A stretch of DNA of 32,000 bases from Candidatus Scalindua sp. Lineage in GTDB: Bacteria > Planctomycetota > Brocadiia > Brocadiales > Scalinduaceae. This document shows positions 952 to 32,000 of this stretch, piece after piece; positions within the stretch are counted from its first letter, which is position 1, and each line of letters begins with the position of its first letter. Position numbers and translations under genes: made by a program. A model generated the notes under the pieces. It did no database searches and was not told the DNA's origin. It worked only from the letters and a program-made list of their open reading frames with translations. The DNA lies in the NCBI GenBank assembly GCA_031316235.1, contig JALDRA010000001.1, forward strand, positions 240,001 to 272,000. Direction: 5' to 3'.

Positions 952-1338
952 TTAATCAAAAGGATTTGTAAATTCAAGTACTTCTATCGCTTTAAAATCA
1001 TTTACATTTCTTGTTTTCAGATTCAAATTATTGAGAACTGCTGTAGCTGCTATAATCGCATCTGCAAGCTTTATGTTTGTCCTTCTTTTTAATTCAATAG
1101 CTTTGTTGGCAATACCTTCATCTACAAGATAAGTATTTGCATATTCAAGCAGTCGTTTGCATTTTTCAATGCCATCAGGTGTGTGCTTATCCCATCCAAG
1201 AAATTCTATCTTTGTAATTACAGAAATATTAAAGGCTTTTTGAGAAATAATGCTGTCCATAAAAATTATACTCTTCTCTGATCCTTTGGTATGGTATATT
1301 AAAATATTCGTATCTATCAGATACTCAGTTGCAGGCAT
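952..1338 (-). CDS. vapC: PIN-domain toxin (VapC family)
   Basis: 128 aa. The N-terminus YLIDTNILIYH carries the first PIN acidic residue. Size is typical, and there is a 14-nt overlap with a small upstream ORF in TA architecture. Confidence 0.85.
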   Translation of the reverse strand: MPATEYLIDTNILIYHTKGSEKSIIFMDSIISQKAFNISVITKIEFLGWDKHTPDGIEKCKRLLEYANTYLVDEGIANKAIELKRRTNIKLADAIIAATAVLNNLNLKTRNVNDFKAIEVLEFTNPFD

Positions 1339-2475: not shown

Positions 2476-2718
2476 ATGGATACGGTTCGTTTAAATGTTA
2501 CCCTTCCAAAAGAGCTGGTCCGACAGCTAGATAAGTTAGTTGGATCTAGAAAAAAGAGCCATTTTATCGCTGAGGCTTTAAAACAAAAGATTAAGAAAAT
2601 CCAGAATGAAGAACTTCAAAAACTTTTAAAAGAAGGCTATAAAGCTACCAAACAGGAGAGTCTTGGTATAGCAAAAGAGTTTGAACCCAATGACCTGGAA
2701 GGGTGGGATGAATATTAA
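2476..2718 (+). CDS. Ribbon-helix-helix (CopG/MazE-type) antitoxin
   Basis: 80 aa. The N-terminus VRLNVTLPKELVRQLDKLVGSRKKSHFIAEALKQ is a classic RHH beta-strand plus helix pattern. It overlaps the toxin start. Confidence 0.8.
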   Translation: MDTVRLNVTLPKELVRQLDKLVGSRKKSHFIAEALKQKIKKIQNEELQKLLKEGYKATKQESLGIAKEFEPNDLEGWDEY

Positions 2719-3052
2719 AAGGGGAGAAATATATCTTGCCATCCTCGATCCAGTTGTGGGAAAAGAGATTTCAAAGACCCGTCCAGTTGTCATTATTTCT
2801 AATGATAAAAACAACGAATTTTCAGGAACTGTTACTATTTTGCCTATCACCTCCAAAAATCTTCAAAAGACTTACCCCTTTGAGGTATTTTTGCCAGAAA
2901 GATCCGGAAATCTTCCCAAAAATTCTAAGGTTAAAGCCGACCAAATCCGTACACTTGATAAAGGTCGCATCGTTACCTTTTTAGGAAAACTTGAAAAGGA
3001 AAAAATGGATCAAATTGAAAAGGCCATAAAGATACATCTTGCATTGTCCTAA
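2708..3052 (+). CDS. mazF: MazF/PemK-family endoribonuclease toxin
   Basis: IKRGEIYLAILDPVVGKEISKTRPVVIISND...ILPITSK...KVKADQIRTLDKGRI is the MazF/PemK signature. I prefer ATG 2708 (MNIKRGE) over the track start 2681. It overlaps the antitoxin stop by 11 nt. Confidence 0.85.
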   Translation: MNIKRGEIYLAILDPVVGKEISKTRPVVIISNDKNNEFSGTVTILPITSKNLQKTYPFEVFLPERSGNLPKNSKVKADQIRTLDKGRIVTFLGKLEKEKMDQIEKAIKIHLALS

Positions 3053-4093: not shown

Positions 4094-6700
4094 TTATTTA
4101 TAATAATATCCCTGTCCTTTCTTTGTCTGGTTCAGGACTGCTCCTATTATCTTGGTTTGAGACTCTTTTATGCAACTTACTGCTTCATTGATACCCTTGA
4201 TAGATACTTGCCCTGGTTTTATCACAAAGATAACTCCATCTACCAATGAAAGTAAGGGTTTAAAACTACCCATCGTCTCAAGTATGGGCGGGGCATCAAC
4301 AAGCACTACGTTAAAGTGTTGCTTCAGTATGTCCAAAAACTTTCCAAGGAGTGCGAAATATGATAGACCATCAGGTTTTACACCCACGGTGCCTGCCGGC
4401 AAGAGTGATAGATTTGGTTCATCCAGGGATTGTATGTTTGAGAGTACCTCTCTTTCCAGCAAGCGGCTCCCCCCCATTCGCCCCAAACGACTGATGATTG
4501 GTGCATAATCTTCCTCAAAATGTATTCTCTCATCTTTGAAGGACTCAATGCTGCCTGGTTCATATGTAAAGGTGCCCTGTTTCCAACTAAAAAGTTTCTG
4601 AAGGAGTTCCTCCATCTGCAGTTTAAGCGGACCCTGTAATTGTCCCTGATTAATGTATCCGGCATTGAGAAGGATATATCCTAGAGGCTGACCCGTGCGC
4701 TGGTTTCGATCAAGGGAATCCTTTAACTGATTCTCGGTAATGAAATTCCCATTAAGGAGCATGGTTCCTAATCGATTACGATAAGGGACATCACGGCTCT
4801 GCAATTGAAAGAGACCTCCTTTATCAAAGACAGCCGTCATTCCTTGAGTATCATTTGTGATCGTAAGCTTACCACTCTCTTTTTTTAAAGCAATGACGGA
4901 AAATAGATCATTCACACTGTATTCATCCAGTGTCCCCTGTTCTATTTTCTGGGATAGAACCTGAGTCATAGCCGGAATAAGACCTTTTTCCCCTACACCA
5001 TTTACACTGAACATGTTATGAAGGGATGGCCGCAGTACATCAGCATCTACCATGACCACACGCAGGCCTCCCCTCGCCAGGTTAAGGGCTGATCTTGCAA
5101 GCACTGTGCTCTTACCCTCCCCGGAGGTTGAACTCTCTATCAGAAGCACATGCCCGGACATCCCGGAATGCATCAATGGGAAGCTGGGAACAAGATTGGA
5201 TGAGAAATCATATTCATAATAACCTTGTGCACGTTTCTTCTTTTCATTATGAGGCTCGTCTTCTGGCAATGCAAGTATCTTGCCCCTTTTCAGAGATTCA
5301 TCATAGGGTATCATCCCCAGTACCGCCATCCCCAGAAGCCTCCTCACATCATCCGGGGTTCTCACAGAGTTGTCCACATACTCAAAGAGAAAGGCCAGTC
5401 CCAATGCCGTAAAGGCGCCAACCACAATACCGAGTGCAACATTTACCTTCTTTCGTGGTTTAACCGGACGATTCGGAATAATCGCCTCATCTATCACACT
5501 TATGCTGGCGATCTTTTGGCGATCCATTTCATCTGAAATACGGGCCTCCTCTAATTTTCCTATATAGATTTTGTAGTTATTCTCATTAATTATTTGCTCT
5601 CGTTCCAGATCTCTGAGTCCATCTTCCCAAAGGTCAAGTGTTTGAATCTCCTTATCTAACGCCTTCAATTGCTCTTTGAATTCAGTACTTATAGCCTCCT
5701 GGGATTGGAGCAATGCCATGGCCTTAAGCGCTTCCTGTTCTTTTAAAAAATCTTTTACAAACAGGATTTCTTTTCGTACGTCAGTAACCATGCGGGAATG
5801 GTCTTTATACTGTCTTGTCAGTTCTTTTTCCCTTTGCTGAAGGCCAAACAACCTGACCCTGGCGTTGTCGATTATGTCAGATCCATCTGTTTCAGTATAA
5901 AGCGGCACATCCTCTGCATTGATTTGTGTCTTTATATTCATGGAAGTGAGTTTTTGTCGTAATTCGCCAATCCGATTTTCAGCCATCTTTAATGAGGTGT
6001 CGAATTCAATCCGCTGCCCTAGGAGAAAATTTCTCTGCTCATCAAGAGAGGAAATCTTGTATTCTTGTTTAAAGGCCTCTAATCTGCCTTCCGATTCTTT
6101 CAATATCCTTCTATAGTTCTCCAGTTTTTCCTCCAAAAAAGGAGTTGACTTTGGGTTACTAAAGGTTTGAAGATGTTTCTCTTTGAAAAGCTCAACCAAT
6201 AGATTAACAGATCTGGCTGCAATTTGCGGGTCATAATGTCGGAAGGAAACCTTAATAATACCGGAACCTTTTACAATTTCGGCTGATAAATCACGCTGAA
6301 ATCTTAATACGGCTGATTCCAGAGGGTCCACATCTGCGGGATCAGTATTTATACTATCTGGATAAATAGTTTCTAGTCCTAGCGTAGTTACAGCTTTTTC
6401 AGCAAGGTCCCGGCTGGTAATAATTTCGATCTCTGAATTAAGCATTTCTGTGCGATCAGAAGTGATTATTGGAAGATTGTCATTGCCTACTTCAGGCTTA
6501 TATATATTCTCCCTTCCCGATTTGATAATCAACCTTGTCTCGGCTTCATATATGGGGGTTTGTAGAAAAGTGTAGAGTGCAACCGTAGTTACTACGCTGA
6601 GGAAAATAACAAGGATCTTGTACTTATGCTTGAATATAACTATCAGAAAATCCATGAGAGTAAAATCATGTTCGATAGTAACCGTTTTATCTGTTTCCAT
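4094..6700 (-). CDS. Polysaccharide co-polymerase / BY-type tyrosine kinase (Wzc/GumC-like) with a ~160-aa domain insertion in the kinase domain
   Basis: 868 aa.
- N-terminal Wzz-type TM segment, long coiled-coil periplasmic region, second TM (VNVALGIVVGAFTALGLAFLF).
- Walker A SGEGKST, Walker A' VVMVDADVLRPSLH, Walker B VVLVDAPP.
- C-terminal Tyr cluster GYYYK.
- A' and B are about 245 aa apart (usually about 100) because of an insertion at aa ~586-745.
- SD AGGTGA lies upstream of the ATG. Confidence 0.85.
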   Translation of the reverse strand: METDKTVTIEHDFTLMDFLIVIFKHKYKILVIFLSVVTTVALYTFLQTPIYEAETRLIIKSGRENIYKPEVGNDNLPIITSDRTEMLNSEIEIITSRDLAEKAVTTLGLETIYPDSINTDPADVDPLESAVLRFQRDLSAEIVKGSGIIKVSFRHYDPQIAARSVNLLVELFKEKHLQTFSNPKSTPFLEEKLENYRRILKESEGRLEAFKQEYKISSLDEQRNFLLGQRIEFDTSLKMAENRIGELRQKLTSMNIKTQINAEDVPLYTETDGSDIIDNARVRLFGLQQREKELTRQYKDHSRMVTDVRKEILFVKDFLKEQEALKAMALLQSQEAISTEFKEQLKALDKEIQTLDLWEDGLRDLEREQIINENNYKIYIGKLEEARISDEMDRQKIASISVIDEAIIPNRPVKPRKKVNVALGIVVGAFTALGLAFLFEYVDNSVRTPDDVRRLLGMAVLGMIPYDESLKRGKILALPEDEPHNEKKKRAQGYYEYDFSSNLVPSFPLMHSGMSGHVLLIESSTSGEGKSTVLARSALNLARGGLRVVMVDADVLRPSLHNMFSVNGVGEKGLIPAMTQVLSQKIEQGTLDEYSVNDLFSVIALKKESGKLTITNDTQGMTAVFDKGGLFQLQSRDVPYRNRLGTMLLNGNFITENQLKDSLDRNQRTGQPLGYILLNAGYINQGQLQGPLKLQMEELLQKLFSWKQGTFTYEPGSIESFKDERIHFEEDYAPIISRLGRMGGSRLLEREVLSNIQSLDEPNLSLLPAGTVGVKPDGLSYFALLGKFLDILKQHFNVVLVDAPPILETMGSFKPLLSLVDGVIFVIKPGQVSIKGINEAVSCIKESQTKIIGAVLNQTKKGQGYYYK

Positions 6701-6722: not shown

Positions 6723-7373
6723 TTAAAAATATGCCTCTTTCACATAGACAATATCATTAGGCACAAGATTAATGTCCTGAGTCAAGTCAGTACCATTTAT
6801 AACTTCTTTTATATTCACCGGGATGATTTGCCTTGTATTATCAACATTGCGGCGTATGACTATTACTTTGCTGTGTCTAGCTGCATCTTTAAAACCTCCT
6901 GCCTGTAAGATAGACTGCAATACCGTCATGGGGCCTTCCAAATTGATCATTTGTGGCTCCTCCACTTCGCCACCCACATAAACTTTTTGTTTGGAGCGAA
7001 GAACTATTACTGTAATATCAGGTTTTTCGAGTATTTGTGAATATTTTTCCTTTAGCAGGTTTGTAAATTCTTTTACCGTCATACCGGCGGCCATGACTCC
7101 CTGTACCAATTGCAGAGAAACACGACCATCAGGCAGAACTATTATCCCTTCTCCATTTATCCCTTCTTCATTTAAATTGGGGTTATAGAAAAATTTAATG
7201 CTTAGTTGATCTCCTGGTTGGAGTAAGTATTCATCATAATTCTGGTTGTTCTGTGTCTGATCTTCTGCGGAAGAAACGTTAGTGGCTTTTTCACCTACAG
7301 CTTCAAACAATGCTTGTAAAAGCATAATAGTAATGACCACAAAAACTAGAACTGTTTTTTTCAGCATTCGCAT
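6723..7373 (-). CDS. Polysaccharide export protein (Wza-like, Poly_export + SLBB)
   Basis: Motifs include LQPGDQLSIKFF...VLPDGRVSLQLVQGVMAAGMTVKEFTNLLKEKY...ITVIV...KVYVGGEV..P....EGPMTVLQSILQAGG. Track start 7454 is a TTG. I prefer ATG 7373 (MRMLKKTVLVFVVITIMLLQALF), which gives a signal peptide. Confidence 0.85.
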   Translation of the reverse strand: MRMLKKTVLVFVVITIMLLQALFEAVGEKATNVSSAEDQTQNNQNYDEYLLQPGDQLSIKFFYNPNLNEEGINGEGIIVLPDGRVSLQLVQGVMAAGMTVKEFTNLLKEKYSQILEKPDITVIVLRSKQKVYVGGEVEEPQMINLEGPMTVLQSILQAGGFKDAARHSKVIVIRRNVDNTRQIIPVNIKEVINGTDLTQDINLVPNDIVYVKEAYF

Positions 7374-7520
7374 AAATAGTTTTGTAAGTTTGAAGCCTGC
7401 CTGTAAGTAATCATTTGTTTGCTTGCCAGGCACGCAGACGGCTTGAATTCCCAACTATATTTAGTCATTTTGTGTAAAAACTTTGCCTTATATAGTGCAG
7501 ACACAGCTCCGCCCTCTCAG

Positions 7521-7726: not shown

Positions 7727-9160
7727 TTACAAATAACATTTTAAAATGTCTCTCTGCTCTTTACCCATTTCTCTAAATTTAAACCCATATATGTACGAGC
7801 CATTATCCCTGTGCATCCACACAACTTCTGCAATCGTACTCAATCCTTTGACATTATTATTTTCAGGTAAGACTAAATTTATTTTGTGTTCACAGTTTGT
7901 CAAATATTCATCTGTCTTGGCCGCAAAACCATTAAAACTGATATTCATCAATTCGCTGGTATTGAACAGTTCCCTCTTATCAGTTTCTATCATGCATAAA
8001 ATCTTCGAACATCGGGTGTTACGCAAATAAATTCTTTTATTACTTATTTTAACCATCTTGTGCATGGGCTCCATGGGCGCTGTTTCAGTCTGCACATGAT
8101 GCCAACCTTTTTTACCCCTAACCTTAAATCTCAGTAACTTTTTTATACAAAGCGAAAAGGTAAAATGTACGATAAAAAATGCTAAAAAGATTGAAAACAG
8201 ATAATATTCGGGTATTCTGTAAATAGTACCTGCAATCCCCAGGGCCGAAAATATTGTTGTTGTTAAGGCAATAATCAAAACAACATATTTTTTCTTGAAG
8301 CCTAATCTTAATAAAATATGGTGGATATGCGACTTGTCAGCAGAGAAAGGATTTTTGCCGTTAATTATTCTCCTGAGAGAAACACTGGTAAGATCAGCTA
8401 TAGGAAAAGCGAGTATTAATAGAGGGACAAATGGCGGAACAACACTATTTTGTTTTTGACTTATAGCAATAGATAAAAAAGCCATAGAAAAGCCTAGCAA
8501 AAAGCTACCGGCATCGCCTAAGAATAATATTGATGGATTCCAGTTATATCTGAGAAAGGCAATAACACAACCGCTCAGTGCAATACTTAATAACAGATAC
8601 AAAGGCTGGTTGTTTATGTACGCAAGTATACCAAAAGATATAAAGGCAATAGTAGAAACTGTACCCACAAGCCCATCTACACCGTCAATCATATTGGTTG
8701 CGTTAATAACGCCTACAATATAAAGAATAGTCACCGGGACAGCGAAAATACCAAGATTAACTGGACCAAAAGAGAGAATATTACCAAAAGACAGCAGTAC
8801 AATTTTTCCAGAATGAATTACGATAATAGCCGTGATTATTTGCGCCAGTAATTTCCATTTGGGAGTTAGCTTTTTATAATCATCACAAAAACCTGTTAAG
8901 AGAACGATAAACATACCCACATAAAATGAGAAAATTTGTTTCGTTTCAATATACAAGAAACAACTGACAGAAAGGGATATCGCAATTGCAATGCCTCCAA
9001 TTAACGGCCTTCCAACTTTGTGAACTTTACGTTTGTTTGAATAATCCAATAAACCTATTTTATTAGCATACAAACACATTCTCGGAATTAAGATATACGT
9101 AATTACGAGAGACAACACAAAGATTTGGCAGCCACATATAACTGAAAATTGAATACCCAT
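7727..9160 (-). CDS. Polyprenyl-phosphate sugar-1-phosphate transferase (WecA/MraY, glycosyltransferase family 4) fused to a C-terminal PilZ domain
   Basis: 477 aa.
- Multi-TM N-terminal body with KIGLLDYSNKRKVH..PLIGG, NATNMIDGVDGL and GDAGS motifs.
- C-terminal ~106 aa (nt 7730-8047) carries the PilZ motifs RIYLR (RxxxR) and NISFNG ((D/N)xSxxG). Confidence 0.85.
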   Translation of the reverse strand: MGIQFSVICGCQIFVLSLVITYILIPRMCLYANKIGLLDYSNKRKVHKVGRPLIGGIAIAISLSVSCFLYIETKQIFSFYVGMFIVLLTGFCDDYKKLTPKWKLLAQIITAIIVIHSGKIVLLSFGNILSFGPVNLGIFAVPVTILYIVGVINATNMIDGVDGLVGTVSTIAFISFGILAYINNQPLYLLLSIALSGCVIAFLRYNWNPSILFLGDAGSFLLGFSMAFLSIAISQKQNSVVPPFVPLLILAFPIADLTSVSLRRIINGKNPFSADKSHIHHILLRLGFKKKYVVLIIALTTTIFSALGIAGTIYRIPEYYLFSIFLAFFIVHFTFSLCIKKLLRFKVRGKKGWHHVQTETAPMEPMHKMVKISNKRIYLRNTRCSKILCMIETDKRELFNTSELMNISFNGFAAKTDEYLTNCEHKINLVLPENNNVKGLSTIAEVVWMHRDNGSYIYGFKFREMGKEQRDILKCYL

Positions 9161-9472
9161 TATTTTTTTAAAGCTTATTTTAGAAAGTGACTATAGAGCA
9201 GAGCGTAAAGAACATGGCGCAAACATGCGCAACTCTTTCAAAATGACTACCTCTCCCCCACCAGAATGACTATCAACCGGCCTGTGCCGGTTTACAGGTA
9301 CTTTGTACCCGGACAACGTCATTCAGTCAAACGGACCGAGGCTTGAGATTGGATCGTAGACTGTAGTCAGGCCGGGCCCGTCCGAGAACGGATTCATACC
9401 GACGGGTAACTACATCCCTGTAATTGATCAGGGCTAACGCACAGAAAACATGATTTTGAAATTCCTCTGCAT

Positions 9473-10219
9473 TTAAACATTCCTATGCTTGCACACATAC
9501 TCACTGATCATCTCAATATGGGTTTGTTGCATATTCTTAAAACGTACACCTGCGTATTGCCCACTGTTCACACTAACCTCCCAAACACATTCTCCACTTG
9601 CCTCAATGAGCCTTGCCCCTGCGTTTAAGCTGAAATTAATATTACAGAGTTCCTTGCCAACCATTGCAGGCCCAGTAACACTCTCTTCTTTCTTGTTAAT
9701 ATTGGGATTAATTTGATCAATCAAGATTCCCCCTACACTAAGGTTCACAATAACTGCCCTATAAGTAATCTTACCTTTACCAGAGACGTGGCCTTTAAAC
9801 TCTGTTTTTAGAGACGTGTCAACCCTTCCAAAGCATCTCCTTTTAACGTCGGTCTTGAAAGGATTCATTTCTTCAAGAATTTCCTTTTCAAACAGCAATA
9901 CAGCCTCATTAGGCTCCCGGCAATTGTATAACTTAATAATGTCCTCTTTTCCTGATATCTTGAGTAGGTTTTGTATTTCTAACCCTACATTGAATAATTT
10001 AATACACATACCACGGTTTATAAAATGTTCCAAAACATTGAGACCCAACCCATCAGCTTTTTTCGTATGTTTCAGGTTTATTATTTTTATAAATCTGCCC
10101 TCATCCAGTGATGAATACAAAAACTCTTCAAGTTGAATGGCACCTCTGCCCGTTAATTCACCATTTATCTCAAGAATCTCTATCTCTGGGTTGCTATGGA
10201 AATAAGTTGAAATCTTCAC
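9473..10219 (-). CDS. STAS (anti-sigma-factor-antagonist-like) + PilZ two-domain protein
   Basis: 248 aa with a GTG start.
- aa 1-105 are STAS-like (EILEINGELTG...IINLKHTKKADGLGLNVLEHFI...CIKLFNV..EIQNLLKISG).
- aa ~122-240 are PilZ, with RCFGR (RxxxR) and NLSVGG ((D/N)xSxxG). Confidence 0.75.
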   Translation of the reverse strand: MKISTYFHSNPEIEILEINGELTGRGAIQLEEFLYSSLDEGRFIKIINLKHTKKADGLGLNVLEHFINRGMCIKLFNVGLEIQNLLKISGKEDIIKLYNCREPNEAVLLFEKEILEEMNPFKTDVKRRCFGRVDTSLKTEFKGHVSGKGKITYRAVIVNLSVGGILIDQINPNINKKEESVTGPAMVGKELCNINFSLNAGARLIEASGECVWEVSVNSGQYAGVRFKNMQQTHIEMISEYVCKHRNV

Positions 10220-10474
10220 TATTTTTTTGTTTTTGGTTTTATTTAGTCACTCTTCAGCAATAGCCTAATCACAAAAAGCATACCAATGGATAAAAATTAA
10301 TGAGATACTTCGTAAGTCTCTATTCATAAACGCACGAGAGTGCAAAAAGTCTGGCAAGAAGTTTTCACAAATAGAGATCAAGACGTTCGGTTTCGAACTC
10401 TTCTCCTTTAATTTCGCTTCAACATATTGACTAACCTCTTGTAATGCTTTCAGATAGCAAGCCGTTTAGGAACG

Positions 10475-10508
10475 CACACTAACCGTACGTATTCGTACGG
10501 TTAGTGTG
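10475..10508. other. Perfect 15-bp stem / 4-nt loop hairpin
   Basis: cacactaaccgtacg-tatt-cgtacggttagtgtg. No flanking T/A run on either strand, so it is not a canonical terminator. Confidence 0.9.
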
Positions 10509-11023
10509 GCAAGCTATGACTGGAGGTATTGACTCTTTAGTCCTCTGCCTGTTTAAGATTGTTTCAACGCTTCAACGTTATGCGGCTATTCAATGTTAAA
10601 GGATTAAATGCCTGGCGTGTCTTAACCGTTCACGGGTCCACCGAAAAATTTCGGAATTCAGATTGCGGATTGCAGAATAAAAGAGAGGAAATAATAGTTC
10701 ACCGCAAAGATACTAAAAAAGCCAAGGAAAGGGAAAGTATAAAAAAATGAAGTGAATTGTTAATATCCTTTGAAACTTAGCGGGCTTTACGCCCGTGGCA
10801 GATTCCAACAATATGAAAGTTTTTGAAATCCGAATTCTACATTCCGAAATTCGAAGTATCAGGGTAAGTGTAAACCGTGAACTGGCAGCAATGAACATTC
10901 ACGAATCATATGAGAAGCATTAATGAATATGGTCAGGAAGGAAGAGATTTCTTGTTTACAACCTTAGGCGGTGTAATTTCTTAGTGCAACCTGCACGTTT
11001 CTTTTGCTTGCAGGAAACGCTAC

Positions 11024-12568
11024 TTACGAAATTGCTTTTTTATAGATATTGTATTTTTCAATCCTACGGTTCAAGCTTGCACGGCTGATTCCCAATTCTC
11101 TAGCAGCTCTGGTTTTGTTCCATTTCTCCTTTTGAAGCATAAACCCAGTCATTTCCTTATCAGCAGTACTTATAACATCTTGGAGTTTTTTACTCTCGTT
11201 ATCGCCGCTTATAGATGGTTCCTTAAAAACCGCTTTTGTCGCTTCCAAGTAAAGGTGTTCGGGTTCGAGAGTCGGACTCCTTCTTGACATGGTAACCAGG
11301 CTTTCTACCGTATTTTTAAGTTCCCGAACATTACCCGGCCAATCATGTTCATTAATTATTTTGATCAGGTCCGGACTCAGCCTTTTCCCCCCAATATTTT
11401 TTTTATCCGTATAATATTCTAAAAAACTAAAGAAAAGAGGCTCGATATCTTCTCTCCTCCTTCTTAGCGGAGGCAATACAATTCGAAGAGTGTTAATTCG
11501 AAAGAGGAGATCTCTCCGGAATAATCCCGCTTCTACCATCTCTGATAAATCCTTATTAGTTGCAGTGATAACCCTTACATCTACCTCCCTTTCCTTAACA
11601 CCTCCTACCCTGTAAAAAGTTCCGTTTTCAAGCACTCTCAATAGCTTACCTTGTACATCGATACTTAAATCCCCTATTTCATCGAGGAACAAGGTACCAC
11701 CATCAGCCATTTCAAACAGCCCTTTTTTCTCCGTCACAGCACCGGTAAAAGCACCTTTTTCGTGTCCAAATAACTCTGAACTCAAGATCGTATCACTGAA
11801 CGAAGAGCAATTCTGTATAACAAATGCCTTATCTTTGCGAATACTGTTATAATGTACAGCAGTCGCTATGAGCTCTTTGCCTGTTCCAGTTTCTCCTAAA
11901 ATCAAAACCGGACTTTCGGAGTACTCAATCAGATCCAATTTATCAAAGATCTTTTCCATCGACATGCTTATACCAATTATGCCTTTATATTTTCCGTTAC
12001 GCCTCCTATCAATAAGGAGTGTCTGTTTCTTTATTATATTATCCTCATTAAACAAAGTTTCACAAAAAGATGAGACATCTTTTGCAACCATTTTCATAAG
12101 ACGAAGTACATACTCTTCCGTGTGACTATCAGATATCCGTATTTTATCATATCGATTCAGTACCTCAGTTTTAGAAAGACCAAGACTTGTCATTCTTCTT
12201 ATACTTTCTTCTCTTTGATCATTTGTTAATTGAAGTTGCATCCCGGAACACACCAAATAACCAAAACAATTACCCATTACAATTAATGGAACAGAAAAAA
12301 TCTTCATGTTTTCGCAATGTTTGCACACAAAGGTTTTTTGAGACCCATTTGATGCCTTGAGATTATGTGTTCGAAATACAATACACCCTTCTGCTGCTTT
12401 TTTATTTGAATGGATTAAGGAACAGAGAGGATTTTGTATTTGGGAATCATTAAATTGGCAGTTGCCAAATTCAACGTAAAAATGGGTATCAAGCCCCCAC
12501 CAATCACGGGCAATATTTCTAAATATCTTTACAACATGAGAATTAATTACCTTATTCCATTTTTCCAT
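11024..12568 (-). CDS. Sigma-54-dependent transcriptional activator (bEBP) with PocR-like Cys-rich N-terminal sensor and Fis-type HTH
   Basis: 514 aa.
- AAA+ core: GETGTGKE, the GAFTGA loop in [40 protein letters not shown].
- C-terminal HTH: [21 protein letters not shown].
- N-terminal ~170 aa (NPLCSLIHS...EGCIVFR...[30 protein letters not shown]) resemble PocR sensory domains. No receiver domain. Confidence 0.9.
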
Positions 12569-13559: not shown

Positions 13560-13967
13560 CTATAGAGTCTCAATTTTCAGACCGGGTATCTTTTTAAAAT
13601 TATCGGCGTTGCCGGTCAGCACAGCAAAACTATGGGTTATCGCCATCGCTGCAATTTGTAGATCATGGACGTTGCCAAGAGACTTGCTCCGTGGCTTCAG
13701 AAAATAGGCATATAGCACGGCATAAGTTCTGGCTACCACTTCTGAAAAGTTGAGAACAGGCACCTTGGCGACAATACCCTCGACAAAGGAGGAGCGTTGT
13801 ATCCGTACATCAGGGGACTTGGCTACATGGACACCAGCAAGTAATTCTGAAAGAGTGATAGCTGAAATATAAGCTTCACCATAATGGGAAAAAGCTGCCA
13901 GATCATTCAGATCTAACCGATCATTTTCCGCGTCAATGAAGATATCCGCATCAACAATTAATCCCAT
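13560..13967 (-). CDS. vapC: PIN-domain toxin (VapC family)
   Basis: 135 aa. The N-terminus LIVDADIFIDAEN carries the PIN acidic residue. It overlaps the upstream antitoxin gene by 10 nt. Confidence 0.85.
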   Translation of the reverse strand: MGLIVDADIFIDAENDRLDLNDLAAFSHYGEAYISAITLSELLAGVHVAKSPDVRIQRSSFVEGIVAKVPVLNFSEVVARTYAVLYAYFLKPRSKSLGNVHDLQIAAMAITHSFAVLTGNADNFKKIPGLKIETL

Positions 13968-30078: not shown

Positions 30079-32000
30079 TCAATATCCGTAGTAGGTGGAG
30101 TCTTTTTTCGCCTGATTCAATATAGTGCCTACGACACGTGTATCAGACTCTTTCAGGAAATTGGCTGCTTGATTCACCATTTTGACAGAAGCATGTCCAG
30201 ACTTGACAACAAAGATTACGCCATCAACTAAAGGTAGCAATGGCCTCACACTGCCTAATGCTTCCAACAATGGCGGTGCATCTATAAGTACGATATCGAA
30301 GCGTTGTTTCAGGATATCCAATACCTTTGTAAGGAACGTAAAATACTGTGGACCTTCATTTCTCAATTCATCACTACCTGAAGTTAATAAAGAAAGGCTC
30401 AATCCCTCAATGGATTTAAGACATGAGAGAACTTCATTTTCAACCAATCTGCTGCCCACCATACGGCCCAAACGCTTGATAATGGATGAGTAATCTTCCT
30501 GGAAATGAATTCTTCTGTCCTCATAGGTCTCCACATGTCCTGGTTCGAAAGCATATTCACCCTGTTTCCAGCTGAACAACTTTTGAAGGTGTTCTTCCAT
30601 TTGAAGTTTTAAAGGGCCCTGTAATTGACTTTGATTAATATAGCCTGAGTTAATGAGAATATATCCCATAGGCAGACCGGTACGTTTGTTTCGATCCAGG
30701 GCATCTTTCAATTGATTCTCGTCAATAAATCCACCGCGAAGAAGCATTGTTCCCAACCGATTGGCAAAGGGAACTTCCTGGCTCTGGAGGTGAACCAGCC
30801 GGCCATTTTCAAAGACAACAGTCATAGCTTGAGAATCATCTTTTACCACAAGTTTTCCACTCTGCTTTTTCAAAGAAATAAGAAAGAACAGATCATCGAT
30901 ACTGCACGTATCTAAAGTCCCATGATCCAGGTTCTTTGACAGTATCTTTGTCATAATATTCAACAATCCATTCCGATTCCCATTATCTAAACCAAACTTG
31001 TTATGCAGAGACGGCCGTTGCAGATCTGCATCAACCATTGCTACACGCAGCCCGCCCTTTGCCAGATTTATGGCTGAATTTGCAAGTACTGTTGTCTTTC
31101 CTTCACCAACAGTTGCACTTTCGATCAAGAGTATTTGTCCAGACATCCCCGATTCCAGGAGAGGCAATCCGCATATCAGACTACTTGAAACATTATAATA
31201 TCTCCCACTTCTCACCTTGTCTTTCTTCTGCTCGTTAAGTTTCAACTGGGACCCATTCGTCGGTAAAACAAGCGACTCTGTCCTGTTCAGATACCTGTTA
31301 TATGGTAACATGCCTATAACAGGCAGTTCAAGATGCTGCATGATGTCCTCTGGAGTCCTGATCGTTTTGTCCATATATTCAATGAAAAAAGTAAATCCCA
31401 AACCAAAAAACAGCCCCATGACTACAGCCAGTGAAATATTAAAGATAACATTTGGTTTGACAGGCAGACGGGGAATAACCGCAGCATCAACGATGCTGAT
31501 GTTTTGGCTCTCCATATTGCCAGTAAGATTGATTTCTTTGGCTTGTTTCAGCAGGATATCATAAATTGCCTTATCACTTTCCGCCTCCAATTCCAACATA
31601 CCATAATTTGTAAACTTACCATCATACAAATCAGCCTGCGAATCCTTCTCCGCCAGAATCTGTGTTTCAGTGCCCACATCAACCACTGCTCGGTCTAATT
31701 CTATCCTCATCGACTCTTTTAACCGACCCGCTTCATCAACAATACTCTTTTCCAGCTGGCTTATGCTTGAATCAATCTCAATGATCTTTGGATGCTTAGG
31801 ACCATACTTGGTATTCAGCTCCATTTTATTCGTCCTTAGCTGAACTAATTGTCTGCGCAGATCCTGGATGACATAGTGGTCTTTCACTTCCGGCAACGCG
31901 AAAAAACTGTCACTATCCACTGGATGGAAATCAATCTCATTAAATTCAAATTCGCTGATTGAAAGGATAGACTTTGCAAGCTTAATTTTATGATCTCTCA
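30079..32000 (-). CDS. Second polysaccharide co-polymerase / BY-kinase paralogue with the same kinase-domain insertion; 5' end lies beyond the right edge
   Basis: The track starts it at a GTG (31920), but the frame stays open to nt 32000 (my translation ...RDHKIKLAKSILSISEFEFNEIDFHPVDSDS...).
- Walker A VGEGKTT, A' VAMVDADLQRPSLH, B IVLIDAPP, Tyr tail STYYGY.
- The insertion (aa ~332-492 of the listed ORF, nt 30445-30927) is collinear with that of 4094..6700. Confidence 0.85.
   Translation of the reverse strand, partial: RDHKIKLAKSILSISEFEFNEIDFHPVDSDSFFALPEVKDHYVIQDLRRQLVQLRTNKMELNTKYGPKHPKIIEIDSSISQLEKSIVDEAGRLKESMRIELDRAVVDVGTETQILAEKDSQADLYDGKFTNYGMLELEAESDKAIYDILLKQAKEINLTGNMESQNISIVDAAVIPRLPVKPNVIFNISLAVVMGLFFGLGFTFFIEYMDKTIRTPEDIMQHLELPVIGMLPYNRYLNRTESLVLPTNGSQLKLNEQKKDKVRSGRYYNVSSSLICGLPLLESGMSGQILLIESATVGEGKTTVLANSAINLAKGGLRVAMVDADLQRPSLHNKFGLDNGNRNGLLNIMTKILSKNLDHGTLDTCSIDDLFFLISLKKQSGKLVVKDDSQAMTVVFENGRLVHLQSQEVPFANRLGTMLLRGGFIDENQLKDALDRNKRTGLPMGYILINSGYINQSQLQGPLKLQMEEHLQKLFSWKQGEYAFEPGHVETYEDRRIHFQEDYSSIIKRLGRMVGSRLVENEVLSCLKSIEGLSLSLLTSGSDELRNEGPQYFTFLTKVLDILKQRFDIVLIDAPPLLEALGSVRPLLPLVDGVIFVVKSGHASVKMVNQAANFLKESDTRVVGTILNQAKKDSTYYGY

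Follow-up and report, generated by a model that had tools for sequence, protein, structure and literature searches.

A PilZ domain fused to a WecA/MraY-type phosphoglycosyl transferase in Candidatus Scalindua: a candidate c-di-GMP switch of polysaccharide initiation

We found that a single gene of Candidatus Scalindua encodes a protein, PGT-PilZ, in which a WecA/MraY-type phosphoglycosyl transferase (PGT) and a canonical PilZ domain are almost certainly joined in one polypeptide. The gene is located on the minus strand of the window, the whole 32,000-nt stretch of DNA that was analysed, and consists of one ORF of 477 aa plus stop without an internal stop codon, which bears out the original prediction that a single 477-aa frame connects both parts. 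The explanation that we favour, and regard as probable, is that the PilZ domain of this WecA-type enzyme switches polysaccharide initiation in response to c-di-GMP.

Domain architecture of PGT-PilZ

Over 448 aa, the PGT-PilZ ORF is 100% identical to a protein annotated at NCBI as 'PilZ domain-containing protein [Candidatus Scalindua sp.]'. The NCBI gene model (448 aa) differs from the 477-aa ORF at the N-terminus only, and we chose the 477-aa start because it restores the conserved TM1 of the homologues. The interval 7730-8047, in which the PilZ domain had been predicted, corresponds to the last 106 aa of the ORF, beginning ISNKRIYLRNT. The AF2 model of the protein (mean pLDDT 81, pTM 0.70) is laid out as an MraY-like core, a disordered linker carrying RxxxR, and a barrel plus helix.

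The N-terminal part (aa 1-345) is a WecA/MraY-type PGT with all catalytic motifs intact. In a 29-sequence alignment of homologues, D93/D94, N153/N156/D159/D162, D216 and H278/H280/H281 were invariant. The phmmer matches of this part in the PDB reached MraY with E-values down to 2e-15, and Foldseek matched the AF2 core, whose transmembrane helices were confidently modelled, to MraY and DPAGT1 with E ~4e-11 and a target-normalised TM-score (TMt) of ~0.8 (0.75-0.83 for the MraY matches). The profile match, the catalytic motifs and the polytopic helical fold place it in the PNPT superfamily. The TIGR02380 (WecA equivalog) score was 223.6 bits and thus below the cut-off of 326, suggesting that the transferase is WecA-like but not an ECA WecA orthologue. 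A Pfam search of PGT-PilZ found no GT2 domain, the domain by which a BcsA-type synthase would be recognised.

Hydropathy analysis predicted 11 TM segments in the transferase part, and 27 K/R residues were counted on the predicted cytoplasmic side versus 3 on the periplasmic side, in an N-out/C-in topology. PGT-PilZ, with its 11 predicted TM segments and cytoplasmic C-terminus, follows the plan of WecA, which also crosses the membrane 11 times and ends in the cytoplasm. Because of the 11 segments and the 27:3 positive-inside bias, the PilZ domain is predicted to be cytoplasmic and to share a face with the active site. Most of the linker between the two domains (aa 348-383) had an AF2 pLDDT below 50. 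Its length varied among homologues in the alignment, and in the homologue P0026 it was ~30 residues shorter, so short that the PilZ domain would be forced near the membrane face.

For the C-terminal part, the PF07238 score was 32.1 bits in the whole protein and 36.5 bits in the 106-aa tail alone, both above the cut-off of 22.5. In the AF2 model, the strands fall within residues 388-464 and residues 467-476 form a helix, at pLDDT 66-84. The best Foldseek match of this part was the Alg44 PilZ domain 4rt0 (E 8e-4, TMt 0.65), and other matches included 4xrn (PA PilZ), MotI 5vx6 and BcsA; the probability was 1.00 for 4rt0, 4xrn and 5vx6, and the matched Alg44 and PA PilZ structures are c-di-GMP-bound. 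Sequence identity to solved PilZ domains was only 16-20%. When the tail was shuffled 200,000 times, RxxxR and (D/N)xSxxG appeared in the same order and spacing in 0.14% of the shuffles. In Alg44 and YcgR, 22-27 residues lie between the two motifs, and the 25 residues of the window protein are close to that range. The threshold score, the motif pair at a spacing of 20-30 residues, and the barrel with its C-terminal helix identify a canonical PilZ domain, and from these sequence and model features it is likely that the domain binds c-di-GMP.

Both domain assignments of the original prediction were confirmed: a WecA/MraY-type N-terminal part, on which Pfam, PDB, NCBIfam and Foldseek agree, and a PilZ tail of ~106 aa, for which the profile threshold, for which a check had been asked, was passed, and both motifs and the predicted fold agree with it. 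The predicted motifs KRIYLR and NISFNG were also found, at a spacing of 25 residues from R380 to N406 and not the 24 originally counted, a trivial difference.

Table 1. Positions in the window of PGT-PilZ, its parts and its neighbours
Feature	Position	Strand	Evidence
Complete PGT-PilZ gene	7727..9160	-	Uninterrupted ORF; NCBI match; start set by TM1 of homologues
PNPT membrane core with 11 hydrophobic segments, aa 7-339	8144..9142	-	Hydropathy, K/R counts, AF2, Foldseek
Glycos_transf_4 (PF00953) match, aa 77-233	8462..8932	-	136.3 bits, cut-off 27
D93-D94, within PF00953 match	8879-8884	-	Invariant in 29-sequence alignment
N153xxN156xxD159GxD162G, within PF00953 match	8672-8704	-	Invariant in 29-sequence alignment
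H278-I-H-H281 (WecA-type 'HIHH'), fifth cytoplasmic loop	8318..8329	-	Alignment and topology
Linker, aa 346-388: basic juxtamembrane helix, then disordered tether with RxxxR	7997..8125	-	AF2, alignment
PilZ motif 1, R376-I-Y-L-R380 (RxxxR)	8021..8035	-	Located in translation
PilZ beta-barrel and C-terminal helix, aa 389-477	7730..7996	-	PF07238, AF2, Foldseek
PilZ motif 2, N406-I-S-F-N-G411 ((D/N)xSxxG)	7928..7945	-	Located in translation
Upstream neighbour: STAS and PilZ protein, 248 aa	9473..10219	-	Pfam, motifs from translation
PilZ of STAS-PilZ protein, RCFGR and NLSVGG motifs	~9494-9841	-	PilZ 28.4 bits, cut-off 22.5
Sigma-54-dependent activator with PocR sensor, upstream of module	11024..12568	-	Sigma54_activat 217.8 bits, PocR 40.6 bits, HTH_8
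Downstream neighbour: Wza-like outer-membrane polysaccharide export protein	6723..7454	-	Poly_export (67.7 bits), SLBB
Wzc-like co-polymerase / BY-kinase, 868 aa	4094..6700	-	Wzz, GNVR, P-loop, DUF4388 matches
DUF4388 insertion in Wzc-like kinase	4544-4939	-	Pfam
MshEN-type c-di-GMP motif in DUF4388 insertion	4631-4774	-	NF053729 'c-di-GMP_motif, MshE-related' 44.5 bits, cut-off 38

Distribution and genomic context of the fusion

ORFs of the same length, 477 aa, were found in the MAGs of two other Scalindua species (L006 with 96% and L007 with 73% identity). All nine full-length matches scanned (477-522 aa), which came from a profile search of 1.84 billion proteins, carried both domains. Of the top 120 clusters at 90% identity, at least 36 independent ones contained the PilZ fusion, with assemblies from NCBI, ENA, JGI and Logan. 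A scan of GTDB representatives with query-specific peptides detected two full-length fusions only, both in Scalindua, while the other 78 loci matched in the transferase domain only. Judged by protein-entry names only, the fusion extends to Brocadiaceae, Nitrospirota and metagenome bins. That an assembly or sequencing error near 8040-8110 fused two separate genes is extremely improbable: the same ORF runs on continuously in both other Scalindua species, the fusion recurs in dozens of clusters from the four databases down to 38% identity, and the linker can be aligned across homologues with the frame unchanged. As far as sequence comparison goes, the same continuous ORF in independent assemblies rules out an assembly artefact.

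Down to an identity of 38%, most fused homologues carried RxxxR and (D/N)x(S/G)xxG. At least 90% of sequences had R380, and almost every fused homologue kept the first Arg; G411 was invariant in the alignment, and the D/N of motif 2 was kept, with H in a few members. The serine of motif 2 was kept in the Scalindua clade and was often G elsewhere, and some family members had no clean RxxxR. Because of the change from S to G in many members outside Scalindua and the unclean RxxxR in a few, binding may not be universal in the family.

In a BLOSUM62 NJ tree of the PGT core, which is without support values, fused and unfused proteins were interleaved, so we dropped monophyly of the fused proteins; the PilZ domain would therefore be dispensable for the enzyme, and the tree gives a hint of repeated PilZ loss or gain among these PGTs. 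A sister PGT (P0041) has a GGDEF domain at the position of PilZ, with a degenerate active site (YESDK) and an intact RxxD I-site, which, read from these motifs, is a receptor-type configuration. The same PilZ subtype is also fused to a CapD-like sugar dehydratase.

In the window, a Wza-type exporter and a Wzc-type co-polymerase stand beside the PGT gene, as in a Wza-Wzc pathway. The best NCBIfam match of the Wza-like protein was the XrtA/PEP-CTERM export protein, under its cut-off. The Wzc-like kinase matched Wzc, PslE, CapAB and VpsO in PDB sequence searches, its residues 640-696 matched MshE 5htl and PilF 6f8l, and its translation ends in GYYYK. In the upstream neighbour, STAS scored 19.5 bits, just under the cut-off of 22.6; a STAS-PilZ neighbour was also found in Scalindua SCAELEC01. 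The whole STAS-PilZ, Wza-like and Wzc-like-MshEN context was kept in the relative with 73% identity. Among window ORFs of 100 aa or more, no gene for Wzx, Wzy or a further glycosyltransferase was found. Fusion relatives are located near genes for GT1/GT2, Wzy_C, WecG, WecB-like, sulfotransferase and deacetylase proteins, the Wzy_C gene lying in the cluster of the relative L087, and the fusions outside Scalindua have neither STAS-PilZ nor Wzc-MshEN beside them.

The sigma-54-dependent activator adjoins the module in L007 but not in L006, which makes its assignment to the system tentative. A search for the sigma-54 promoter consensus with at most two mismatches gave 17 sites in the window versus 13.7 expected, none of them convincing upstream of the genes, and the link to the adjacent activator therefore stays unproven. 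A c-di-GMP riboswitch, or any other known RNA, was likewise rejected, both for the 312-nt leader (9161-9472) and for other places: no part of the window matched Rfam at the gathering score, and 9100-11100 had no match at E<=1. The leader folds only marginally better than its shuffles (z = -1.66) and is poorly conserved in L006 and L007, except for ~70 nt beside the start codon.

Proposed mechanism and alternative functions

In the favoured explanation, PGT-PilZ would act as a polyprenyl-phosphate HexNAc-1-phosphate transferase, by which Und-P becomes committed to a polysaccharide repeat unit. From the final (11th) TM helix of the enzyme, the chain would run on into the flexible basic linker and then into the cytoplasmic PilZ domain. 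At high c-di-GMP, the linker bearing RxxxR would wrap the ligand onto the PilZ barrel, the tether would become shorter and ordered, and the position of the barrel would shift against the active-site cytoplasmic face of the transferase or of a dimer partner. This would turn on initiation of an exported polysaccharide handled by Wza/Wzc, and the most probable way is that auto-inhibition is relieved, as it is in BcsA. Binding of c-di-GMP, the direction of the control and its direct action on the transfer reaction are our inferences. Gating of the committed step by c-di-GMP is consistent with the predicted cytoplasmic PilZ domain, the conservation of its motifs, and the sister PGT with its I-site GGDEF domain. 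From the sequence, the chances that PilZ directly controls transferase activity appear evenly balanced. The motif changes in some family members, the interleaved tree and the absence of Wzx, Wzy and further glycosyltransferase genes from the window ORFs of 100 aa or more speak against the favoured explanation, as does the long disordered linker of Scalindua, which would also fit a PilZ domain acting on another partner.

Such a partner is the core of an alternative that we consider unlikely, in which PilZ binds c-di-GMP without gating catalysis and serves as a ligand-dependent docking or scaffolding module, either recruiting the PGT to STAS-PilZ, to the Wzc-MshEN kinase or to other pathway components, or controlling localisation or dimerisation. 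The tether of ~40 residues with low AF2 confidence would suit this role, the same conserved module encodes two more putative c-di-GMP receptor proteins, and the C-terminal helix of PilZ domains is a known protein–protein interaction surface (bioRxiv 10.1101/814665). However, the partner would have to be generic, since fusions outside Scalindua lack STAS-PilZ and Wzc-MshEN neighbours, and members with short linkers such as P0026 keep PilZ against the enzyme itself.

The C-terminal domain could also be a remnant of the PilZ fold that does not bind c-di-GMP and has a structural or ligand-independent role, for which PilZ proteins of Xanthomonas and P. aeruginosa PilZ are examples without c-di-GMP binding. 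We consider this quite improbable: the Pfam score of 32 bits is modest, the identity to solved domains is low (16-20%), G can replace S in motif 2, and motif 1 is not intact in every family member, but the window protein has both motifs complete at a 25-residue spacing, R380 is nearly invariant and G411 invariant across the family, the AF2 model contains the canonical C-terminal helix, and in the sister PGT this place is taken by another type of c-di-GMP receptor domain. Of these readings, switching of polysaccharide initiation by the PilZ domain is the one we carry forward.

Relation to known systems and significance

The PGT/Glycos_transf_4-PilZ architecture was not found in full-text searches of freely accessible papers, nor in the PilZ surveys 10.1101/814665 and 10.1101/2020.02.11.943704. 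PilZ control of polysaccharide synthesis is already known, and the placement at the PGT step appears to be new. With BcsA and Alg44, PGT-PilZ has a physical principle in common, a PilZ domain appended to a polysaccharide enzyme; the contention that its logic differs from theirs is nevertheless fair, as an Und-P-dependent initiating transferase beside Wza/Wzc is set against synthase-dependent systems. In the BcsA cellulose synthase (PDB 4p00), as in PGT-PilZ, a C-terminal cytoplasmic PilZ domain follows a membrane polysaccharide enzyme and RxxxR lies in the linker; Foldseek aligns the C-terminal part of PGT-PilZ to BcsA, and the likely common logic is relief of auto-inhibition. But BcsA is a processive GT2 synthase-translocase, whereas PGT-PilZ is a PNPT enzyme with a single sugar-1-P transfer to Und-P and an MraY-like core fold, so that BcsA serves as a working analogy only; we know of no gating loop of the BcsA kind in the PNPT enzyme class. 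Alg44 (PDB 4rt0), the best structural match of the PilZ part, is likewise a c-di-GMP receptor within an exopolysaccharide (EPS) machine, but Alg44 is non-catalytic, has its PilZ domain at the N-terminus together with an HlyD-like co-polymerase part, and acts in trans on the Alg8 synthase.

E. coli WecA, P. aeruginosa WbpL and TagO share with PGT-PilZ the fold, the 11-TM N-out/C-in topology, DD, NxxNxxDGxDG and HIHH, and relatives of PGT-PilZ occur in WecG/WecB-type contexts; PGT-PilZ stays, however, below the TIGR02380 cut-off (223.6 versus 326). To our knowledge, no characterised WecA/WbpL/TagO-type member has a C-terminal sensor domain. In Myxococcus, the response regulator EpsW activates the initiating PGT EpsZ (PMC12802240), and thus a signalling module controls a Wzx/Wzy-type pathway post-translationally at the PGT step there too, but EpsZ belongs to a different PGT superfamily (monotopic, WbaP-like) and is controlled by a phosphorylatable receiver on a separate protein rather than by a c-di-GMP receptor in the same chain. 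Caulobacter HfsJ, of the Wzy-type holdfast pathway, was reported to bind c-di-GMP (PMC11481889). In HfsJ, E. coli NfrB (GT2-MshEN) and PelD (degenerate GGDEF), c-di-GMP acts directly on polysaccharide biosynthesis proteins, and PelD-type reception at an I-site resembles the GGDEF-fused sister PGT; however, none of the three is an initiating PGT or has PilZ fused to a PNPT enzyme.

Und-P and nucleotide sugars, which the initiating PGT consumes, are scarce and shared. A good understanding of c-di-GMP control is limited to synthase-dependent systems, among them BcsA, Alg44, PelD and PgaCD. Post-transcriptional flux control of Wzx/Wzy- and ABC-dependent pathways is largely open, and PGT-PilZ speaks to it; few regulators of PGTs are known, and how these enzymes are regulated is treated as an open question in the literature (PMC12802240). 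A canonical c-di-GMP receptor fused to a WecA-type PGT offers a self-contained case in which gating of the committed step by a second messenger can be tested directly, and a compact construct for structural work on allosteric control of PNPT enzymes. MraY, WecA and DPAGT1 are targets of antibiotics and drugs, which makes such control relevant.

For marine anammox bacteria, we tentatively propose that a Wza/Wzc-type EPS pathway may be wired post-translationally to c-di-GMP at three checkpoints of one conserved module, namely initiation (PGT-PilZ), polymerisation/export (the BY-kinase with MshEN inserted in its ATPase domain) and a partner-switch-like STAS-PilZ adaptor. PGT-PilZ would then be the first PNPT enzyme in which the commitment of Und-P is gated directly by a second messenger, in a subfamily whose PGTs would have repeatedly recruited PilZ or a degenerate GGDEF. 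Anammox granules in wastewater reactors form by EPS-driven aggregation, and a molecular handle leading from c-di-GMP to EPS initiation would therefore be of applied interest.

Architecture of the PGT-PilZ protein

The original prediction of one uninterrupted frame was borne out by a 477-aa ORF on the minus strand (window 7727..9160), hereafter PGT-PilZ (PGT, phosphoglycosyl transferase), and positions 7730-8047 encode its last 106 residues. The NCBI gene model of the identical protein is 448 aa long and starts at M30, within the first transmembrane (TM) helix conserved in homologues. We therefore consider the 477-aa start better; it yields a WecA-like 11-TM topology.

Through Pfam searches, we found Glycos_transf_4 (PF00953) at aa 77-233 (136.3 bits, cut-off 27), and a sequence search against PDB chains returned only MraY proteins (best E 2e-15). 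WecA model TIGR02380 was the top NCBIfam match, but the 223.6 bits obtained fell short of its equivalog cut-off of 326 bits; therefore, the protein is WecA-like, and its identity as the ECA WecA orthologue was rejected. D93-D94, N153/N156/D159/D162, D216, and H278/H280/H281 were invariant in a 29-sequence alignment. Hydropathy analysis gave 11 hydrophobic segments, and an N-out/C-in model placed 27 loop Lys/Arg residues in the cytoplasm versus 3 in the periplasm, so that every catalytic loop, like the C-terminal tail, lies on the cytoplasmic side. We modeled the protein from the alignment with AlphaFold2 (mean pLDDT 81, pTM 0.70), and Foldseek matched the modeled core to MraY (E about 4e-11, target-normalised TM-score (TMt) 0.75-0.83) and also to human DPAGT1. 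By sequence, motifs, topology, and model fold, the predicted WecA/MraY-type transferase is thus a WecA-like enzyme of the MraY/WecA/DPAGT1 superfamily.

The tail, predicted to be a PilZ domain, matched PF07238 over aa 389-477 (32.1 bits, cut-off 22.5) and scored 36.5 bits when scanned alone. Both c-di-GMP contact motifs that had been proposed are real and lie 25 residues apart, and their order and spacing were reproduced in 0.14% of 200,000 tail shuffles. In the AlphaFold2 model, a short basic juxtamembrane helix (aa 339-349) is followed by a tether bearing RxxxR (aa 348-383, pLDDT below 50), β-barrel strands (388-464), and a closing terminal helix (467-476), which together form a canonical PilZ layout. 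In canonical PilZ domains, the RxxxR loop is flexible before ligand binding. Foldseek aligned the tail with the c-di-GMP-bound Alg44 PilZ domain 4rt0 (E 8e-4, TMt 0.65), a P. aeruginosa PilZ protein with c-di-GMP (4xrn), B. subtilis MotI (5vx6), and the BcsA PilZ region. These results indicate that PGT-PilZ is an intact initiating transferase carrying a canonical PilZ domain with intact ligand-contact motifs, tethered on the predicted active-site face, where TM11 ends in the cytoplasm.

Conservation of the fusion and parallel fusions

A search of 5.8 billion proteins returned the identical protein, annotated 'PilZ domain-containing protein [Candidatus Scalindua sp.]'. PF00953 and PF07238 occurred together in at least 36 clusters among the 120 matches listed (identity 85% to 38%), derived from NCBI, ENA, JGI, and Logan assemblies, with the named ones belonging to Scalindua, Brocadiaceae, and Nitrospirae. 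The 477-aa ORF is also present in two other Scalindua MAGs (96% and 73% identity). At the level of sequence comparison, an assembly artefact behind the fusion was excluded by this recurrence in other MAGs and in clusters from all four sources. We also ran a linker and PilZ profile on 1.84 billion 50%-identity representatives and obtained 6,343 PilZ relatives (E<=1e-3). Roughly a dozen full-length proteins (459-522 aa) in the top 150 matched C-terminally, and all nine that were scanned carried Glycos_transf_4 and PilZ. PGT-PilZ thus belongs to a genuine but small family, amounting to tens of 50%-identity clusters.

Most family members have RxxxR and (D/N)x(S/G)xxG spaced by 22-25 residues, with imperfect motifs in a few. 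G411 does not vary, and 90% or more of the sequences keep R380. The motif-2 serine, retained within the Scalindua clade, is frequently replaced by glycine in other members. A simple NJ tree built on the transferase core intermixes fused with unfused proteins, suggesting that the sensor domain was repeatedly lost or gained.

Two other proteins carry parallel fusions. P0041, from the same PGT subfamily, has a C-terminal GGDEF domain (113.9 bits) in place of PilZ, with YESDK at the GG(D/E)EF position (a degenerate active site) and the upstream RxxD I-site (RKTD) kept, a receptor-type arrangement like that of PelD. P0133 is a CapD/WbpM-like nucleotide-sugar 4,6-dehydratase (Polysacc_synt_2, 345 bits) that ends in the PilZ subtype of PGT-PilZ. 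Both fusions strengthen the c-di-GMP reading of PGT-PilZ. P0133 is also a second early polysaccharide step bearing a fused PilZ domain.

Gene neighbourhood and putative c-di-GMP receptors

Features of the window and of homologous loci (L numbers)
Feature	Position	Strand	Remark
RxxxR motif, R376-I-Y-L-R380	8021-8035	-	PGT-PilZ translation
(D/N)xSxxG motif, N406-I-S-F-N-G411	7928-7945	-	PGT-PilZ translation
Wzc-like co-polymerase/BY-kinase (first)	4094..6700	-	868 aa; flanks PGT-PilZ, same strand
DUF4388 (PF14332) insertion in first BY-kinase	4544-4939	-	MshE-related motif 4631-4774
Wza-like exporter	6723..7454	-	flanks PGT-PilZ, same strand
STAS-PilZ protein	9473..10219	-	248 aa; RCFGR and NLSVGG; directly upstream of PGT-PilZ
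Sigma-54 activator with PocR sensor	11024..12568	-	flanks PGT-PilZ, same strand
Second Wzc-like BY-kinase	30079-31920	-	MshE-related motif about 30616-30759
Toxin-antitoxin-type gene	952-1338	-	
Toxin-antitoxin-type gene	2681-3052	+	
Toxin-antitoxin-type gene	13560-13967	-	
PqqD-like/radical-SAM contexts	L002 8001-11995; L003; L087 6112-13033; L088 7012-9521		
P0041	L086 188-1822		adjoins ManC and epimerase genes

The five-gene order, including the STAS-PilZ arrangement, is shared with Scalindua SCAELEC01, and the module contains two further putative c-di-GMP receptors besides PGT-PilZ. The STAS-PilZ protein scored 28.4 bits for a C-terminal PilZ domain, and its N-terminal STAS-like domain, at 19.5 bits, narrowly missed the cut-off of 22.6; the protein may be a c-di-GMP-dependent partner-switching adaptor. 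In both BY-kinases of the window, a DUF4388 module splits the P-loop ATPase domain, separating Walker A/A' from Walker B, and matches the MshE-related c-di-GMP motif NF053729 (44.5 bits in the first, 49.1 in the second, cut-off 38), with weak sequence matches of the insertion to MshE 5htl and PilF 6f8l. Homologues bearing the insertion form only about 37 90%-identity clusters, with identity never below 47%; those few that have a name are labelled Scalinduaceae or Phycisphaerales. To our knowledge, a BY-kinase sensing c-di-GMP would be unusual in itself, and no description was found in the literature with the terms tried.

No Wzx, Wzy, or further glycosyltransferase genes were found among the ORFs of at least 100 aa in the 32,000-nt window. 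Rfam families, including c-di-GMP riboswitches, had no match in the window or leader regions, the PGT-PilZ leader was poorly conserved with an unexceptional fold, and no convincing sigma-54 promoter was found. Toxin-antitoxin-type genes, which encode a MazF/PemK toxin and a pair of PIN-domain proteins, lie on both sides of the EPS module.

Outside Scalindua, the fused PGT lies within larger polysaccharide gene clusters, one with GT1, GT2, and sulfotransferase genes, another with WecG, a WecB-like epimerase, and a dehydrogenase, and others with Wzy_C or a polysaccharide deacetylase. The fusion is evolutionarily retained, and in the window it is set among polysaccharide export genes. PqqD-like (RiPP recognition element) and radical-SAM/SPASM genes and 40-47 aa ORFs also repeatedly adjoin it there, and homologues P0033 and P0039 carry a fused PqqD domain C-terminal to PilZ, suggesting a link of the subfamily to peptide-modification systems. 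An NTP_transf_5 gene directly follows in L004 and L005.

Proposed mechanism and relation to known systems

We propose that c-di-GMP would bind the PilZ domain and order the RxxxR tether, that the barrel would then shift against the cytoplasmic loops of the transferase or a dimer partner, and that commitment of undecaprenyl phosphate (Und-P) would be switched on at high c-di-GMP. The linker ranges from ~10 residues (homologue P0026) to ~40 among fused homologues. The long, disordered Scalindua linker is compatible with PilZ acting as a scaffold toward the neighbouring putative receptors, which leaves room for that reading; the direct intramolecular mechanism is favoured because short-linker members must hold PilZ against the enzyme. 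Gating at the first step would be physiologically sensible, given that PGTs draw on substrates that are shared and in limited supply (PMC12802240).

BcsA, in which PilZ is likewise appended to a polysaccharide enzyme, offers the closest working analogy, but its defining GT2 domain is absent from PGT-PilZ according to Pfam. For control exerted at the PGT node, the closest precedent is Myxococcus EpsW-EpsZ, where the separate response regulator EpsW acts on EpsZ, a PGT from another superfamily (PMC12802240). In Caulobacter, c-di-GMP reportedly acts on the Wzy-type pathway enzyme HfsJ (PMC11481889), which, unlike PGT-PilZ, is not the initiating enzyme. The full-text literature searched and the PilZ surveys consulted, with subscription journals incompletely covered, contained no mention of the PGT-PilZ architecture.

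Within the reach of sequence analysis, the original prediction is supported, with direct c-di-GMP gating as its proposed consequence. PGT-PilZ appears to be an uncharacterised, conserved variant of PilZ-controlled polysaccharide synthesis, moved to the Und-P-committing PGT rather than categorically new, and it offers a clean, directly testable entry into post-translational PGT control.
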